UHGV virus genome: UHGV-0306558
DNA length: 25,890 bases
Strand: one strand, 5' to 3'
DNA from: a virus
Under the pieces are notes generated by a model that had not been told where the DNA came from, made no database searches, and saw only the letters and a list, made by a program, of their open reading frames with translations. Both the position numbers and the translations under genes were made by a program. This document shows, piece after piece, positions 1 to 20,956 of this stretch (the first letter of the stretch is position 1; every line of letters begins with the position of its first letter).

Positions 1-713
1 GCGTTCGGATTTTCCTGCGGTTTGAGTTCGCCGCCATTAGCGATGAAATCATGACGCTGGAAGTACGCTTCGCGCACCATAATATAAGGATCGGACGACT
101 GACGCAGCAGACCATCGGAATCCAACAACTGCGCACGAGTTTCTATCCCTTCAAGCGTCCATTTACCCACAGACATCGGCCAGGTCAGCCAGGAAAGAAC
201 CGGGTAAAGACCATCCGCCATATCACCACCGTCATCACGCAGCGTGAAGCTACCGTAGAACGGTAACTGGACGTAAGGCCCATAACCCACGCCATAATGA
301 CCAAGCGTACTACCGAAGCGGTGAGGTTCAGTCCGTTGCAGTTTCGGGTTCGCCATCCCTGCAACATCAATAAAACCGCCCATCCCCAAAATGGTGTTCA
401 GGAAAAAGCGGGTAAAGTGGACCATCCCCTGATAAGGGTCGCCCTGCAAGAAGTAGTTAACCATCACCGCAGGTTCTTCAAGGTTGCCAGTAAAGTTGCT
501 CAAACCGTTACGCGCCGGTTGCGGAACATAATCACGCCAGGCGACAGCGACCGGTCGAACAATATACGGGTCTAATACATTGAAGTTGAAGTTGTACATG
601 GTGCGGTTGAACCCTTCTAACGGGTCAGAACGCCCTTGCTGATCTGTACCGGAACTCGCACACCCCACCAGAAGCGTAGTTCCCAGAGCAAGCGCCGACA
701 GGCGAAGCTTCAT
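1..713 (-). CDS. mlaA: MlaA (VacJ) outer-membrane lipoprotein of the phospholipid-transport system; 3' end cut by window edge
   Basis: Minus-strand ORF with start codon at 713-711; N-terminus reads MKLRLSALALGTTLLVGC (signal peptide plus lipobox). Sits next to yfdC and argW as in E. coli K-12. Recognised from memory. Confidence 0.85.
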   Translation of the reverse strand, partial: MKLRLSALALGTTLLVGCASSGTDQQGRSDPLEGFNRTMYNFNFNVLDPYIVRPVAVAWRDYVPQPARNGLSNFTGNLEEPAVMVNYFLQGDPYQGMVHFTRFFLNTILGMGGFIDVAGMANPKLQRTEPHRFGSTLGHYGVGYGPYVQLPFYGSFTLRDDGGDMADGLYPVLSWLTWPMSVGKWTLEGIETRAQLLDSDGLLRQSSDPYIMVREAYFQRHDFIANGGELKPQENPN

Positions 714-1006
714 AAATGTCTCCCTGTTTTTTTATGGCTTATGCAGTTTGCCATCCATGACGGAACGATACCGTATCCGCCTGTTTAGGTGTGGGCGATT
801 GTAACAGCACGTCAACTGATGTCCAGACGCCCTGATTTGCTGATTTGATCATAGCCTGGTAATCGCCGCCCTGTAGGCTACTTGATTCTATAGAAACAGA
901 AAAAGGCAAACGCAGCCTTTTCTACATTTTCAGAGTAACTCCCGTCAGTTGCGAGCAAAAAAGCCGCTACGCTTTAGCTATACGTGCTAATTCAAGAGAA
1001 GAGACC

Positions 1007-10966: not shown

Positions 10967-11659
10967 TTAAAACAACGAGCCAAGCAGACCAAGACCGCCG
11001 CCGATCGCAGCCCCCCACGGAGTTGATGAACCAATTAATTTCGCAAGTCCGGCCCCAGCAATAGCACCAGACGCACCTCCGCCAATAGCAGATTGCATTG
11101 CTGATGGTCTGTTGGCATTTGCCGCTGCAAGAGCCGCACTTTGCTGCGAAATCTGACTCATGTTGTTGGCATATGTCTGCCCGGCGTTTGCCTGACCTTG
11201 CAGTGCGCCAAGACCAATATTTGCCAGATTCTGGTAGTTGTTCATCTGACCAGATAGCCATTGCTGACCAAGCGTTGGTGCGATTGTTGCTAACTGATTA
11301 CTGGTTGCTGTGGAACCTAATCCACCCGTTGCTTCCGCTGCCGCCAGACTCTGATAGCGAGCCTGACCAGCAAGATCTTTGTACTGCTGAGAGTTGTAAT
11401 ACTGGTTAAGCGCCTGACCTTGCCCCTCCAGAGACGATAAGTTTTCGAGGCTTCCGACATACTTATCAGCCAGAGGAGTAAACGGCTTCAGGTTGTTCAT
11501 GATGGTGTTGAACTGCTGATTTTGCAGGTCTGCAGCATACTTCTGGGCTTCTGCTGCATACTTTGCGCTTTTATCAGAACTGCCACCTTTCCCGCCTTTT
11601 TCAGGGCAATAAGGTTCCTCGCCGCGCAGTTTTCTGCCCAGCTTAAATGCATATAACAT
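10967..11659 (-). CDS. Ejection protein, P22 gp7-like
   Basis: MLYAFKLGRKLRGEEPYCPEKGGKGGSSDKSAKYAAEAQ... with Gly-rich hydrophobic C-terminus, recalled as P22 gp7. Confidence 0.85.
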   Translation of the reverse strand: MLYAFKLGRKLRGEEPYCPEKGGKGGSSDKSAKYAAEAQKYAADLQNQQFNTIMNNLKPFTPLADKYVGSLENLSSLEGQGQALNQYYNSQQYKDLAGQARYQSLAAAEATGGLGSTATSNQLATIAPTLGQQWLSGQMNNYQNLANIGLGALQGQANAGQTYANNMSQISQQSAALAAANANRPSAMQSAIGGGASGAIAGAGLAKLIGSSTPWGAAIGGGLGLLGSLF

Positions 11660-14299: not shown

Positions 14300-14800
14300 T
14301 TATTCGCTCCCGTTATCGCAAGGTTCCTTTCGGTGGAAGTAATTCCAACCGTTCCACTTCGCCAACTGATTACCGCTACCAACAGGCATACGGTTTGGAT
14401 AACCGGACTTACATTTAGCGGCTTTTGCTCTGTCCATTGCAGACAGTTTGACGAGTCGCTCTTTCCCGTATCTGGCAGTGGTTATAAGTTTTGCAGACGC
14501 TTCCAGCGCATAATCCGGTGCAATGCGGCAGGCAAGGTTGAAAATGACAGCATTGATAGCGTTATTTGATAAACCGTGCTCATCGCCCGGATCCGGAGCG
14601 ACATCTGCATCAGCGAAAATGTAGCCAACGTTGATACCAGGTGACACATCACCGCCAAGCCATTCAGCCATCATCATTTCAAGGTCGTTGACGCCGTCTT
14701 CCATAGACTGCGGTTCGACATCGGTTAACGTGGCATTTGATGCCACACCGAGCTTACGTAATGCCGCAAGGACTAAATCACCCTTCGTTGTCAGGTTCAT
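14300..14800 (-). CDS. Head-completion protein, gp4-like
   Basis: From internal ATG 14800: [33 protein letters not shown]... resembles P22 gp4. The track ORF extends to 14887 through the SQ-repeat frame, which is judged an artefact. Confidence 0.8.
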
Positions 14801-15026
14801 CTGCTGCCGCCTTAGGTTTTCGACCAGGCTTTTTACGCTGTTTTTCTTCTGGCTCTGGCTCTGGCTCTGGCTCTGGCTCTGCAACATCCTTCAAAAGGTC
14901 ATCAGGATGTGAAAACCAACCAGCATCCAGATATTCCTGAAGCTCTTCGGCTTTCACGATTTCAAAGTCGTATCCAACGCCTTTCCATTTCTTCATGTCG
15001 CCATGACGAAAGATCATGTGTGTCAT
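14778..15026 (-). CDS. Small protein with (EP)5 linker and basic C-terminal tail, between coat and gp4
   Basis: ATG 15026 is 7 nt after GGAG and 44 nt after the coat stop. 82 aa: folded-looking N-terminal half, [10 protein letters not shown], then [11 protein letters not shown] tail. Overlaps the gp4 start by 23 nt in another frame. Confidence 0.55.
14851..14881. repeat. Perfect hexanucleotide tandem repeat (GGCTCT) x5
   Basis: ggctctggctctggctctggctctggctctg read directly. On the minus strand it encodes the EP repeat of the small ORF. Confidence 0.95.
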
Positions 15027-15070
15027 GCTTGTCTCCAGATAAAAAAGGGAGCCGAAGCTCCCTCTGGTTA

Positions 15071-16366
15071 TCACGCAGTCTGGTTAGGCAGACCAACACC
15101 AATTGCCTCTGGTCGTACAGCACATGCTGAATACCACACAGCAATACGGCACTTACCAGACAGAGTGTTGATATCACCCTGCGTTGCGAAGATGCCGTTA
15201 ACACCAATGCCTGGAATGCTGAAGGAAGAAGTTTTCATACCAGCAAACAGTTCATGGGTTACCGGGATCGGCTGAGACAGCAGGCGGATTGAGTCATCAG
15301 CCCAGAACACGTTAGCGGTGGTTGTTGCCACGTTCAGAACGTTTACCGGAGTGGTATCAGCAAGAGAGGTGTTTACGTTAGCGTAAGCCTTCTCTTCTTT
15401 TGTCAGTGACGCGTCATCCAGTGCAATCGGCTTCGGCGTGATTTCGATGTGAGTACTATCGATCACACGGGTGATTGAGAAAGTCGCATCATCAGTCAGC
15501 ACGTTCTTCGCCATCTGAGACAGGAATTTCACACCAGTGAAGCTGATTTTGTCGCCGCGCTTAAATCCGGTGGTGGAGGATACGGTCACCGTTGCAACAC
15601 GGTTGTCGACGTTCTCTTTGTTACCATCGGTATCAAGGGTGTATGCCTGCGGCTTAAACTTCTGCGCACCAGAAACAGTTACACCAGTAGCGGTTGACTT
15701 GGTAACTGCCGGAAGTTTCGGTGAGCGAAGAATTTCATCAAAGCCAGCAATCTGACGCTGAATAGTACCGTTGCGATACGCGTCTTCAGGAACGCGCCCA
15801 AAGATGTCACCATCTACCAGGTTGCGGCCTGCTTTGCGGTAATCGTCAGGGTTCAGGAAGTAACTGATGCCCATATCGCGGTTTAGCTCACGGGAGAACA
15901 TCAGGCGCTCTGCATCAGACACAAAATCCCAGCCAGACAGGCCAGTAGATGGACCAATTGCGCGGGTATCGTGAACAACAAGTGAGCCCATTTCGGTTGC
16001 CTGTTTGGCAATTGCTGACTCAATGTTATTCGCCAGTTTTTTGGCGGATGCCTGGATGCGGCGACGGTAAGAACGCTCATCACGCAGGTCATCTGCACGA
16101 AGCTCGAAGAAATCGTTATCCGGATCGCCCATGTTGCATTTCACGGAGAGTTCCAGAATCCCGGTTGCGTTGCCAGTTAAATCCCAGCCAGTCTGGGTTG
16201 GCGCTTCCTGCTCAACAGGCATCCACACGGTGTTGCTTGAACGCTGCATGGATTCTGCCGGAGGGGTGTATTTTGTCACTTTTGACGCCATTGGCGTCAG
16301 GTTCTGGACGGTTTCGATGATTTCATCCAGAGCATACGTGACCAGTTGACCTTCATTTAATGCCAT
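15071..16366 (-). CDS. Major capsid (coat) protein, P22 gp5-like
   Basis: [27 protein letters not shown]... 431 aa; strong resemblance to P22 coat as recalled. Confidence 0.93.
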
Positions 16367-19456: not shown

Positions 19457-20956
19457 TTAAGTTCTCCGTGCGATGGGCCTGATTGGGGCTGGTATCTTTT
19501 TCTCTTTTGGTTTTTTGATGTCGCGCATCATTTTTGCGAAGCGGCGCATCATGTATGCATAGCGAACGGCGGATAGCACGTCGTCGTTAAGCTTGACGAT
19601 TTTCCCGTTTTCATCACGGTGATAGAGGCGGAACTCCTCAAAGAATGGCTCACAGGTGTTGAATACTTTGAAGCGACCATCGAGCATCATGTCTCGCAAT
19701 TCAGTGATGCCAGGCTCAACAGCATTACCGCCATCAGGCCATGTCGCATGCTCCTGCAACATCATAAAACCAGCGTCGGCATACTGCCCTTTGAGCTGCT
19801 CACCGCCGCCCTTCTCATGCTGGTTTCCGTCATGAGGCCATGCGGTTGGCACTTTATGCGCCCATGATTTAACGGCTCCCCACGCCTGAACGGCTGTTTT
19901 TTCTTTCGCCTTCCACACGCGTGAAACGTAGATTATGTCTGCGTCCTTATCCCACCAAAGCTGAACCTGCGCCTGAGGGTGATCCCATCCGAAATCCATC
20001 CCGCCAATTACGTAGAAGTGATCAGGACACTCGAACGGCTGACACTTAATCGTCTCTTCCGGTATCTGGAAGATTCGACCACTACCCATCGTAGGAATAC
20101 CGCGAGCACGCGCCTCTCTCTCATGCTCGGGATAGGATGCGATGATTTGCTCTTTCTGCTCTTCGGTATAGTGCTCAGCGTCATAGATGGTCATGTTGAC
20201 CACTTTCTGCGACTTGCTGGGGTTCTTCAGGAACTTGGTAACAACGTCAGACATCCCCATCAGCGGGGTAAACGTCAGAATTGAGAATTGCCCGTATTTG
20301 TTGGTACGGGTAAGGCCTTCGCCATAAATGCTGTATGGTGGCTCTTCGTCAAACCACACGCCGTGGATTGTGTCACCCTGCCAGCGAGCACGGCCTTGCG
20401 AGTATGGCTTGAAGTAGCAGATTGAAATACCATCTTCAACGCCATCAGCCGTGTGATGCTTAACCAGAAGATGATCAACAAGGTTCGGAAAGAAAGGAGA
20501 CTTCTTCCAGCTAATGATGTCTTCTTTCGGTATGGAACCGTAGCCAGGCTCATCATTCTCTTCGATACGACCACACAGGATGCGTTGAGTCGTTTTGGTT
20601 ACAGTCTCGTTTGTCTCGCCGCCAATCCAGAAGACAACAGGCTCATAGAAACGCTTACCTTTCCACTCACCGCCATATTTACCATCAGCAGGATAGCCTT
20701 TTGTGCCCGGATAACGCCCGGTAAGGTGAAACGCGACTTCAGCAGCACCAGTAAATGACTTACCAAGCTGGTTACCAGCCATAAAACATCGCTCTGGATA
20801 GTCATGTCCGGCGTCGATGAACTCACGCTGTTTGCTGTATGGCGTAAATTCATATAGCAGGTGTGTGTTCCGGTAGTTCTCTTCTTCTTCGAGTAGCTCG
20901 AGCAACTCGATTTGCTCTTCGTCGCTCAGGTTATCAAGAATCGCGTCCAGTTCCAC
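19457..20956 (-). CDS. Terminase large subunit, P22 gp2-like
   Basis: 499 aa, (M)[36 protein letters not shown]... Start is GTG at 20956, preceded by AAGGAG. Confidence 0.92.

Follow-up and report, generated by a model that had tools for sequence, protein, structure and literature searches.

The DNA analyzed here, which we call the window, is a 25,890-nucleotide (nt) stretch of the virus genome UHGV-0306558 and represents the minus-strand late operon of a P22-like (Lederbergvirus) phage or prophage. The E. coli phages IME10, Louie, Dewey, HZ41 and APC_JM3.2 are most closely related to it, matching ~47-52% of the window at 95-97% identity. Between the coat gene and the gene for the head-tail adaptor, gp4, lies a small open reading frame (ORF) of 82 codons, at 14778-15026 (-), whose middle is a hexanucleotide microsatellite, (GAGCCA)5, that encodes a run of five Glu-Pro dipeptides, (EP)5 (Table 1). 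An earlier prediction made from the sequence alone (the original prediction) had placed such an ORF there, and it is present; the perfect five-unit array stood as well, whereas the position given for it, 14851-14881, was in a shifted register and is 14850-14879 in the register of the codons. Tandem Repeats Finder detected a single strong array, at 14848-14881, with a period of 6, 5.7 copies, and 100% matches. The plus strand reads as TGGCTC/GGCTCT repeats and the coding (minus) strand as (GAGCCA)5. No comparable tract was found by pattern search elsewhere in the window or in 100 dinucleotide-preserving shuffles.

The original prediction held that changes in copy number would keep the reading frame, and that counting the repeat units across related prophages would reveal either variation or, arguing against it, invariance. 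The counts vary. Across six related phages, a 401-nt query spans 383, 401, 407 or 419 nt, from which 2 to 8 units are inferred. The locus is carried by 217 of 5,426 complete E. coli genomes (~4%), and in the 90 records tabulated the copy number ranges from 1 to 33, with a median of 5.5, as judged from BLAST match spans for all but four alleles. These four long alleles, of 13, 24, 29 and 33 units, were read directly, and all are perfect and in frame. Eighty loci from IMG/VR, with copy numbers taken largely from short-read assemblies, hold 1 to 14 units with no dominant allele, and GAGCCA accounts for 84.5% of all their units. It should be noted that these tables over-represent records near the window. 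The frame was indeed kept: an intact ORF was found in 80/80 IMG/VR loci and 4/4 long E. coli alleles, so that 84/84 alleles are read through. One further E. coli record, NZ_CP081786.1 (39,448 bp, strain 0H26), contains a P22-like genome with an apparent 1-unit allele (span 377 nt); it is deposited as a separate replicon and may be an extrachromosomal or excised phage genome.

To what extent copy number changes relative to its surroundings can be seen from closely related loci. Seven of ten locus pairs with zero differences in 4,147 nt of flanking sequence differ in copy number, the identical-flank groups holding 14 versus 11 units, 13, 10, 9 and 9 units, and 6 versus 5 units, which indicates that change in the array outpaces the accumulation of point substitutions. 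Where one strain was assembled in duplicate, the assemblies agree (E. coli W; 2018-01-1CC). Some IMG/VR arrays are homogenized for the synonymous unit GAACCA (10-12 copies), and the array unit of a Serratia lineage is GAGCCT; such homogenized arrays point to slippage at the level of the DNA. The N-domains of homologues from Kluyvera, Citrobacter, Buttiauxella and Rahnella are 65-80% identical, yet these genes have perfect GAGCCA arrays of 6-8 units. Together, the copy-number patterns are those expected of unit-wise slippage with concerted homogenization. Because the 6-nt unit corresponds to two codons, every allele is in frame, and the only effect at the level of the product is on the length of the spacer.

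Next to this variable array, the remainder of the ORF has the properties of a conserved gene. The protein matches phrog_1175 (4.1e-37, residues 1-80), and 348 homologous proteins are present in the protein collection. Among 81 alleles, the N-terminal 49 codons contain 18 synonymous and 5 nonsynonymous segregating sites, and the mean pairwise ratio of nonsynonymous to synonymous substitution rates (dN/dS) is 0.043 for the N-domain and 0.045 for the adjacent gp4, showing that the N-domain is under strong purifying selection at a level equal to that of gp4. Using a 58-sequence alignment from many genera, AlphaFold2 returned predicted local distance difference test (pLDDT) scores of 83-92 for residues 1-48 and below 55 for residues 51-82. 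The modeled N-domain contains strands at residues 2-14 and 17-25 and helices at 26-34 and 41-48, and the spacer and tail are predicted to be disordered. A domain of ~45 residues followed by a linker and a basic tail, as originally proposed, is thus borne out with a folded domain of 48 residues. We conclude that the ORF at 14778-15026 (-) is a genuine gene in the late operon of a P22-like phage or prophage.

Table 1. Features in and around the small ORF (positions in the window; all on the minus strand)
Feature	Position	Strand	Basis and remarks
Coat (major capsid) gene, 431 amino acids (aa)	15071..16366	-	Pfam P22_CoatProtein 3.4e-165; upstream neighbour of the small ORF
Terminator-like hairpin and U-run, between the coat stop and the small-ORF Shine-Dalgarno sequence	15034..15065 (stem-loop 15044-15065)	-	Terminator scan, RNA fold
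Shine-Dalgarno sequence GGAG of the small ORF, 6 nt before the ATG (15026)	15033..15036	-	Read from sequence
Small ORF, 82 codons plus stop, homologue of P22 orf69 / PHROG 1175	14778..15026	-	phrog_1175 4.1e-37, alignments
N-terminal domain, codons 1-49: beta-hairpin, helix, 'GW..HP' motif, short helix	14880..15026	-	AlphaFold2, dN/dS
(GAGCCA)5 microsatellite encoding (EP)5	14850..14879 (periodic tract 14848-14881)	-	Tandem Repeats Finder, pattern search
C-terminal tail, codons 60-82 (23 aa), basic core KKPGRKPK; last 7 codons overlap gp4	14781..14849	-	Cross-genus conservation
gp4 Shine-Dalgarno sequence TAAGG inside small-ORF codons P71-K72-A73, 9 nt before the gp4 ATG (14800)	14810..14814	-	Read from sequence
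gp4 head-tail adaptor (Ad3), 166 aa	14300..14800	-	Pfam P22_Tail-4 1.3e-58; phrog_637 'head-tail adaptor Ad3' 6.2e-67

The good Shine-Dalgarno sequence and the partial overlap with gp4 that had been noted for this ORF are both found, the former 6 nt from the ATG and the latter amounting to 23 nt. The upstream sequence CTGGAG is kept in the homologues of Citrobacter, Buttiauxella and Rahnella. An alternative in-frame GTG start at 15074, which would give 98 aa, falls within the region of the coat stop and the hairpin and is unused by most homologues. Elsewhere in the window, two more short tandem duplications (21 nt x 2, 80-86% matches) were observed at 11529-11570 and 19523-19564, within the minus-strand ORFs 10967-11659 and 19457-20956.

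The small ORF is the E. coli-lineage homologue of P22 orf69 and epsilon34 gene 6 (PHROG 1175). The equivalent position is occupied by 'orf69: unknown' in P22, 'gene 6' in epsilon34, 'gp06' in Sf101, and 'gp6' in Proteus phage Brookers. All of these, like the window ORF, are placed on the same strand between a P22-type coat gene and gene 4, and the order coat, hairpin, small ORF, gp4 is common to the window, P22, epsilon34 and Sf101. The window protein aligns with P22 orf69, epsilon34 gp6 and Brookers gp6 in the N-domain and in the basic tail (PRKGRKPKA, KKPGPKPKA). It shares with the P22 orf69 family the N-domain motif M..[IL][FY][KR].G...W.G....[IV]....[LV].[ED][YH][LV]..GW..HP as well as a basic tail that finishes at or within the start of gene 4; residues G36, W37 and P41 are invariant in the family alignments. 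PHROG 1175 is the best match for P22 orf69 (4.5e-31), Sf101 gp06 (9.2e-29) and Brookers gp6, and it is matched by P0133 too, while epsilon34 gp6 best matches PHROG 3769 (the WDGH form) and reaches PHROG 1175 via its N-domain. The members differ in the middle segment, which is a short non-repetitive PVEADDVKP in P22 orf69, a WDGH domain (PF25311, 1.7e-40) in epsilon34 gp6, and the hexanucleotide microsatellite in the window lineage; Pfam gave no match to a WDGH domain in the window ORF.

Hosts of the family include Salmonella, Escherichia, Shigella, Proteus, Providencia, Yersinia, Serratia, Klebsiella, Citrobacter, Enterobacter, Kluyvera, Buttiauxella, Rahnella and others, and even its most distant members (P0133, P0196) are flanked by genes for P22_CoatProtein and P22_Tail-4. 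In Sortsne, Vibrio phage 1.036.O and Pseudomonas phage PfAn1, the gp4 homologue is preceded by an ORF whose N-terminal motif is similar. Sf6 gp6 (PHROG 3251) has the same position and a basic tail, with 14% identity in the N-domain. Judged by sequence, homology of the N-domain is doubtful both for Sf6 gp6 and for an unannotated, Sf6 gp6-like ORF of APSE-1. The latter (MERKSVFAWSDNAAGYVQAVIV..KKGKRANDDKTAD) was observed at ~710-900 (+) of NC_000935.1 (L103), between the major head gene and the Ad3 adaptor gene; P25 and P26, which are annotated on the opposite strand in this region, may be spurious.

Gene 6 homologues differ in length and their role is unknown (Villafane et al. 2008, PMC2629481), and the gene has been described as non-essential in P22 (Villafane et al. 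2008, PMC2629481, citing Eppler et al. 1991). The family has been annotated 'unknown' since the P22 sequence, within one of the best-studied virus assembly gene clusters. We found no description of the hypervariable hexanucleotide microsatellite in the searchable literature, the lone trace being an uncommented 'repeat_region' feature on the EP array in the record of APC_JM3.2 (L108). The gene family is thus known, and the novelty lies in the hypervariable (EP)n microsatellite, which recurs in analogous genes at the equivalent position.

The spacer and the tail differ in how much change they tolerate. Variant units within the arrays encode DP, EQ, ET, ES, EL and KP, and in relatives the middle may lack a repeat or consist of (EQ)n, (AP)n or an entire WDGH domain, which indicates that the spacer, unlike its flanks, is under weak sequence constraint. 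Similar (EP)n arrays are present in family members from other genera. The tail core K-K-P-G-[R/P]-K-P-K is kept across genera with CCT/CCG/CCA, GGT/GGG/GGA, and AAA/AAG differences, and these synonymous third-position changes argue for constraint at the level of the protein, although part of the conservation arises because the gp4 Shine-Dalgarno sequence and the gp4 overlap are embedded there. An E. coli mosaic allele (L107, NZ_AP042478.1, 279-884 (-)) combines an epsilon34-like N-domain, a WDGH domain, (GAGCCA)4, and a window-type tail. Its tail is identical to that of the window (72/72 nt) and its coat and gp4 flanks are 97% identical, while its N-domain is unalignable to that of the window. 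Therefore, the array travels with the tail module, and one type of N-domain can replace another with no co-variation in coat or gp4. The spans of other WDGH-type E. coli alleles differ in 6-nt steps (739-757 nt), so that the arrays of these alleles appear to vary too.

Similar (EP)n ORFs were found in head modules of the HK97 type. Scanning IMG/VR for (GAGCCA)12 yielded 108 stretches, 14 of which are in the orf69 family. Most others are small ORFs that encode a ~48-aa N-domain, (EP)n, and a very short Lys-rich tail (AKGKNKKG, KAGKKK, KRGKAK), and the arrays found range from 12 units, the threshold of the scan, to 79 units (474 nt; L128 and L145). Examples among L113-L219 are L113:1991-2350, L128:556-1347, L168, L121, L175 and L204. 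At the examined loci, the ORF follows a GC-rich hairpin and lies between the genes for an HK97-type capsid (PF05065) and a gp6-like connector (PF05135). These ORFs belong to PHROGs 5463, 2616, 18204 and 21989, one group being Pfam DUF7210. The DUF7210-type ORFs share with the window ORF the capsid-connector position, the preceding hairpin, the three-part build, and variable perfect GAGCCA arrays, but their neighbours are PF05065 and PF05135 rather than P22_CoatProtein and P22_Tail-4. No homology was detectable between the orf69 N-domain and the DUF7210-type N-domains (hhalign probability 1.7%); the AlphaFold2 model of DUF7210 has a hairpin-helix layout at low confidence (mean pLDDT 58). Since the scan used GAGCCA only, the shared unit may be an ascertainment effect. 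The same build and microsatellite in these unrelated proteins suggests a common accessory function in head completion or packaging.

Taking these results into account, we think it likely that the locus is a slippage-varied (EP)n spacer between a folded N-domain and a basic tail, in a genuine gene of the orf69 family. The array gains and loses whole 6-nt units, much faster than substitutions arise in the flanks, and the length changes would come about by replication slippage. The spacer itself would be a length- and sequence-tolerant, probably extended tether that holds two functional ends apart; if extended, 1-33 units would span roughly 0.6-20 nm. Variation in copy number would then be mostly neutral or nearly neutral. 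Several points weigh against this explanation. Some of the IMG/VR sizes come from short-read assemblies, which can mis-size repeats. The conservation of the tail is partly accounted for by the embedded gp4 ribosome-binding site and overlap, the E. coli-lineage tail has 3 synonymous and 6 nonsynonymous variants, too few for a test of selection, and the window tail has no match to Pfam AT_hook, with a homologue below the cutoff (see below). The gene is dispensable for P22 growth in the laboratory (PMC2629481). Finally, translation of the small ORF is a prediction, and the neutrality of the copy-number variation is assumed.

If the variation were instead adaptive, the array would be a tuning or contingency-type locus, fast-mutating and maintained by selection, with different spacer lengths advantageous from host to host, from one capsid context to another, or against host defences that sense the protein. 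The broad allele spectrum without a dominant allele would fit such a locus, as would the persistence of perfect arrays in lineages with N-domains at 65-80% identity, the recurrence of EP arrays in sub-lineages with the units GAGCCA, GAACCA and GAGCCT, and the design shared by the unrelated HK97-module proteins at the equivalent position. However, neutral stepwise slippage in a length-tolerant linker predicts the same patterns. In addition, on/off switching is impossible with a 6-nt unit, no allele was found out of frame, and repeat-free family members exist, e.g., P22 orf69. We regard adaptive length variation as rather unlikely. With a slippage-varied spacer that is tolerant of its length, selection as strong as that on the essential neighbour coexists with a 30-fold range of spacer lengths; such a gene has two conserved ends with a dispensable ruler between them, which provides an experimental handle.

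What the two ends might do was approached through their likeness to other proteins. The N-domain resembles no solved structure, including in a profile search of the PDB. A 20-column strand-helix-GW segment of it matches an endonuclease-like repeat module, with an hhalign probability of 96% (E 3.8e-9), or 94% without the window-type sequences, using a module set that was picked from the query's matches. This unnamed module of ~38 aa (..W/Y-I-N-x-G-x-x-x-K-x-I-x-x-x-E-L-Q-x-Y-L-D-x-G-W-x-x-G) is present in 4-7 copies in GIY-YIG/HNH/NUMOD3 endonuclease-like proteins (P0129, P0131, P0132, P0134-P0136, P0138, P0140-P0142). It is not in Pfam, and a PDB profile search with the module alignment was empty. 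Given that the query served to select the module set and that the module is uncharacterized, we take the likeness as only a lead. At the other end of the protein, the distant homologues P0133 and P0157 finish in KRRGRPPK, which contains an RGRP AT-hook core. The AT-hook is an HMGA-type minor-groove DNA-binding motif, and the window tail resembles it in being a short basic motif with Pro and Gly in a disordered tail, but has GRKP rather than GRP. With Pfam AT_hook (PF02178), the tail of P0157 scores 13.5-15.7 bits against a cutoff of 17.4, and the window tail gives no match. From its sequence, DNA binding by the tail is plausible.

Alternatively, the protein could be associated with the particle, as a minor component of the virion or procapsid whose basic tail binds the capsid interior, the portal or the scaffold rather than DNA. 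The gene does lie inside the head-gene cluster, and the Sf101 homologue carries the RefSeq label 'virion structural protein', but the Sf101 paper contains no proteomic evidence for gp06. Moreover, an allele-specific fit to coat or gp4 is made less likely by the L107 mosaic, whose coat and gp4 flanks match those of the window at 97% identity and enclose an unalignable N-domain and a WDGH domain. We consider a particle-associated protein of this kind improbable.

The surroundings of the gene are also informative as to its expression. The hairpin that follows the coat stop has a 9-bp GC-rich stem, a UUCG loop, and U6 by the terminator scan, and folds with -21.1 kcal/mol (z -3.55; 0/200 shuffles were as stable). 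The same site is annotated 'stem_loop' in P22 and as the 't coat' terminator in Sf6, and the hairpin recurs in P22-like phages from other genera with compensatory stem changes. By these sequence features, a GC-rich stem-loop and a U-run, it is a candidate intrinsic terminator, and the small ORF is the first gene after this probable attenuator. This layout raises the possibility that the ORF is a translational-coupling leader, mainly carrying ribosomes from beyond the coat terminator into the gp4 start and yielding a peptide of little function. Its location directly after the hairpin, the 23-nt overlap with gp4, the gp4 Shine-Dalgarno sequence inside its codons, the overlap with gene 4 in P22, Sf6 and epsilon34 as well, and its non-essentiality in P22 are all compatible with such a leader. 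Nevertheless, the N-domain is conserved over many genera under purifying selection as strong as that on gp4, and gp4 has a good ribosome-binding site of its own. There is also no overlap with the gp4 ATG in Serratia, Kluyvera and some Citrobacter lineages; lineages in which the small ORF stops just before gp4 ('..KPKG*') keep the TAAGG Shine-Dalgarno sequence. A mere coupling leader is therefore quite improbable.

The repeat has consequences for gene calling and assembly. The array is free of stop codons in all six frames and thereby creates spurious ORFs; ORFs opened through it in the window are 14300-14887 (-), 14631-14912 (+) and 14737-14940 (+). An N-terminally extended gp4 of 195 aa, starting from an ATG at 14887 and reading (SQ)n, was rejected, as the Shine-Dalgarno sequence abuts that ATG and the ATG is missing in other lineages. 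A programmed frameshift joining the small ORF to gp4 was likewise rejected: the -1 frame stops immediately (..KTA*), and the +1 frame, from the repeat to the gp4 ATG, is closed in Citrobacter. Rfam gave no match to the region, and the repeat region folds as RNA no better than shuffles (z -0.08), and a role for the repeat at the RNA level was rejected. A reading of the ORF as spurious, with the repeat as non-coding spacer DNA, as an RNA element or as an artefact of assembly, might be suggested by the six open frames, which generate false ORFs, by a partial-pseudogene flag on the 29-unit allele, and by common contig breaks at the repeat, but is very improbable and already largely refuted by the dN/dS of 0.043 in the small-ORF frame, the 80/80 intact loci, the length differences in multiples of 6 nt (barring 1-nt piece-boundary offsets in two-piece BLAST matches), the confident AlphaFold2 fold of the N-domain, the lack of an Rfam match or of RNA structure above shuffle level, and the agreement of complete genomes and duplicate assemblies.

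Database records at this locus show a number of irregularities. The intact 29-unit allele was flagged as a partial pseudogene by the Prokaryotic Genome Annotation Pipeline (PGAP). Contigs frequently break at the repeat, and in P0188, P0249, P0263 and a number of 'partial' DUF7210 proteins the predicted sequence finishes at the repeat or shortly behind it with peptides resembling translated read-through of sequencing adapters (..LSLIHI, ..CLLYTSPSPRDRTRS, ..VSYTHLRAHET), suggesting that the repeat often breaks short-read assemblies. P0021, P0028 and P0082 carry the database name 'dihydrolipoamide acetyltransferase', presumably because of the Pro-rich linker; Pfam detected no lipoyl, E3-binding or catalytic acetyltransferase domain in the window ORF. 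The gp4 adaptor is labelled 'recombinase (RmuC)' or 'putative recombinase' in the records of APC_JM3.2 (L108) and Brookers (L008), labels that are probably erroneous. P0001 carries a tandem duplication of 11 aa where the N-domain ends, and P0137, in which a UDP-glucose-dehydrogenase-like N-terminus is joined at 'EIQEYL' to the C-terminal half of the small ORF, is probably an assembly artefact. Through pseudogene calls, 'acetyltransferase' names and broken contigs, the repeat thus gives rise to both mis-assembly and mis-annotation.

Several known systems can be compared with this gene. Glu-Pro runs occur in the (Glu-Pro)n/(Lys-Pro)n spacer of TonB and in the EP repeats of trypanosome procyclin, which are extended, fairly stiff spacers. 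The likeness is one of composition only: searches of the ORF against Pfam and NCBIfam gave only a sub-threshold procyclin match due to the EP run, whose 16.9 bits are far under the family cutoff of 100 bits and indicate no homology, and AlphaFold2 has low confidence for the window spacer. By analogy, the spacer may be stiff and extended, and not simply a flexible linker.

As DNA, the array resembles the variable-number tandem repeats (VNTRs) of bacterial coding regions and contingency loci, being an in-gene short tandem repeat that changes by slippage faster than by point mutation. It is polymorphic by whole units among close relatives and changes faster than its flanks, as a VNTR does, but with a unit of 6 nt it differs from phase-variable contingency loci in having no frame-shift on/off switching. 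The E. coli locus CVN014 of multiple-locus VNTR analysis (MLVA) is scored in essentially all isolates, whereas the window prophage locus is present in ~4% of genomes; judged by this occurrence, CVN014 is probably a different locus. As an in-frame VNTR, the array could help to track lineages of P22-like prophages.

For the protein, a parallel can be drawn with gpFI of phage lambda. The lambda FI gene is flanked by the genes for the major capsid protein (E) and the connector (FII), and gpFI is a DNA-packaging chaperone with two functional ends and a linker, a non-structural accessory whose mutants have a leaky phenotype. Its folded, head-binding domain is C-terminal. The window gene shares the capsid-to-connector position, and its P22 homologue is reported to be non-essential, but the order of domains in its protein is reversed. 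No link to gpFI by sequence or fold was found for the window protein or for the DUF7210-type family, so that the likeness is an analogy of position and architecture, and DNA binding or a lambda-FI-like role is speculative. A Pseudomonas homologue of the DUF7210-type proteins was annotated as lambda FI-like by its depositor. We tentatively suggest, as one possible function, that the orf69-family protein may be a gpFI-like, non-essential accessory factor of head completion or DNA packaging, whose N-domain would dock on a conserved partner and whose tail would engage nucleic acid. A bolder version, which we consider unlikely, is that the window ORF exemplifies an unrecognized, widespread class of capsid-to-connector late proteins in P22- and HK97-type modules. 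Such proteins would consist of a hairpin-helix domain, a (Glu-Pro)n rod and a basic tail, and could act, while DNA is packaged or the head completed, as a length-variable, gpFI-like tether of capsid or portal to DNA or terminase, with spacer length a rapidly evolvable trait under selection. If true, fast-slipping microsatellites, with GAGCCA as the unit in those found, would encode the spacers of this class and reach 79 units or more. The parallels in HK97-type modules make the analogy with lambda gpFI testable in P22.

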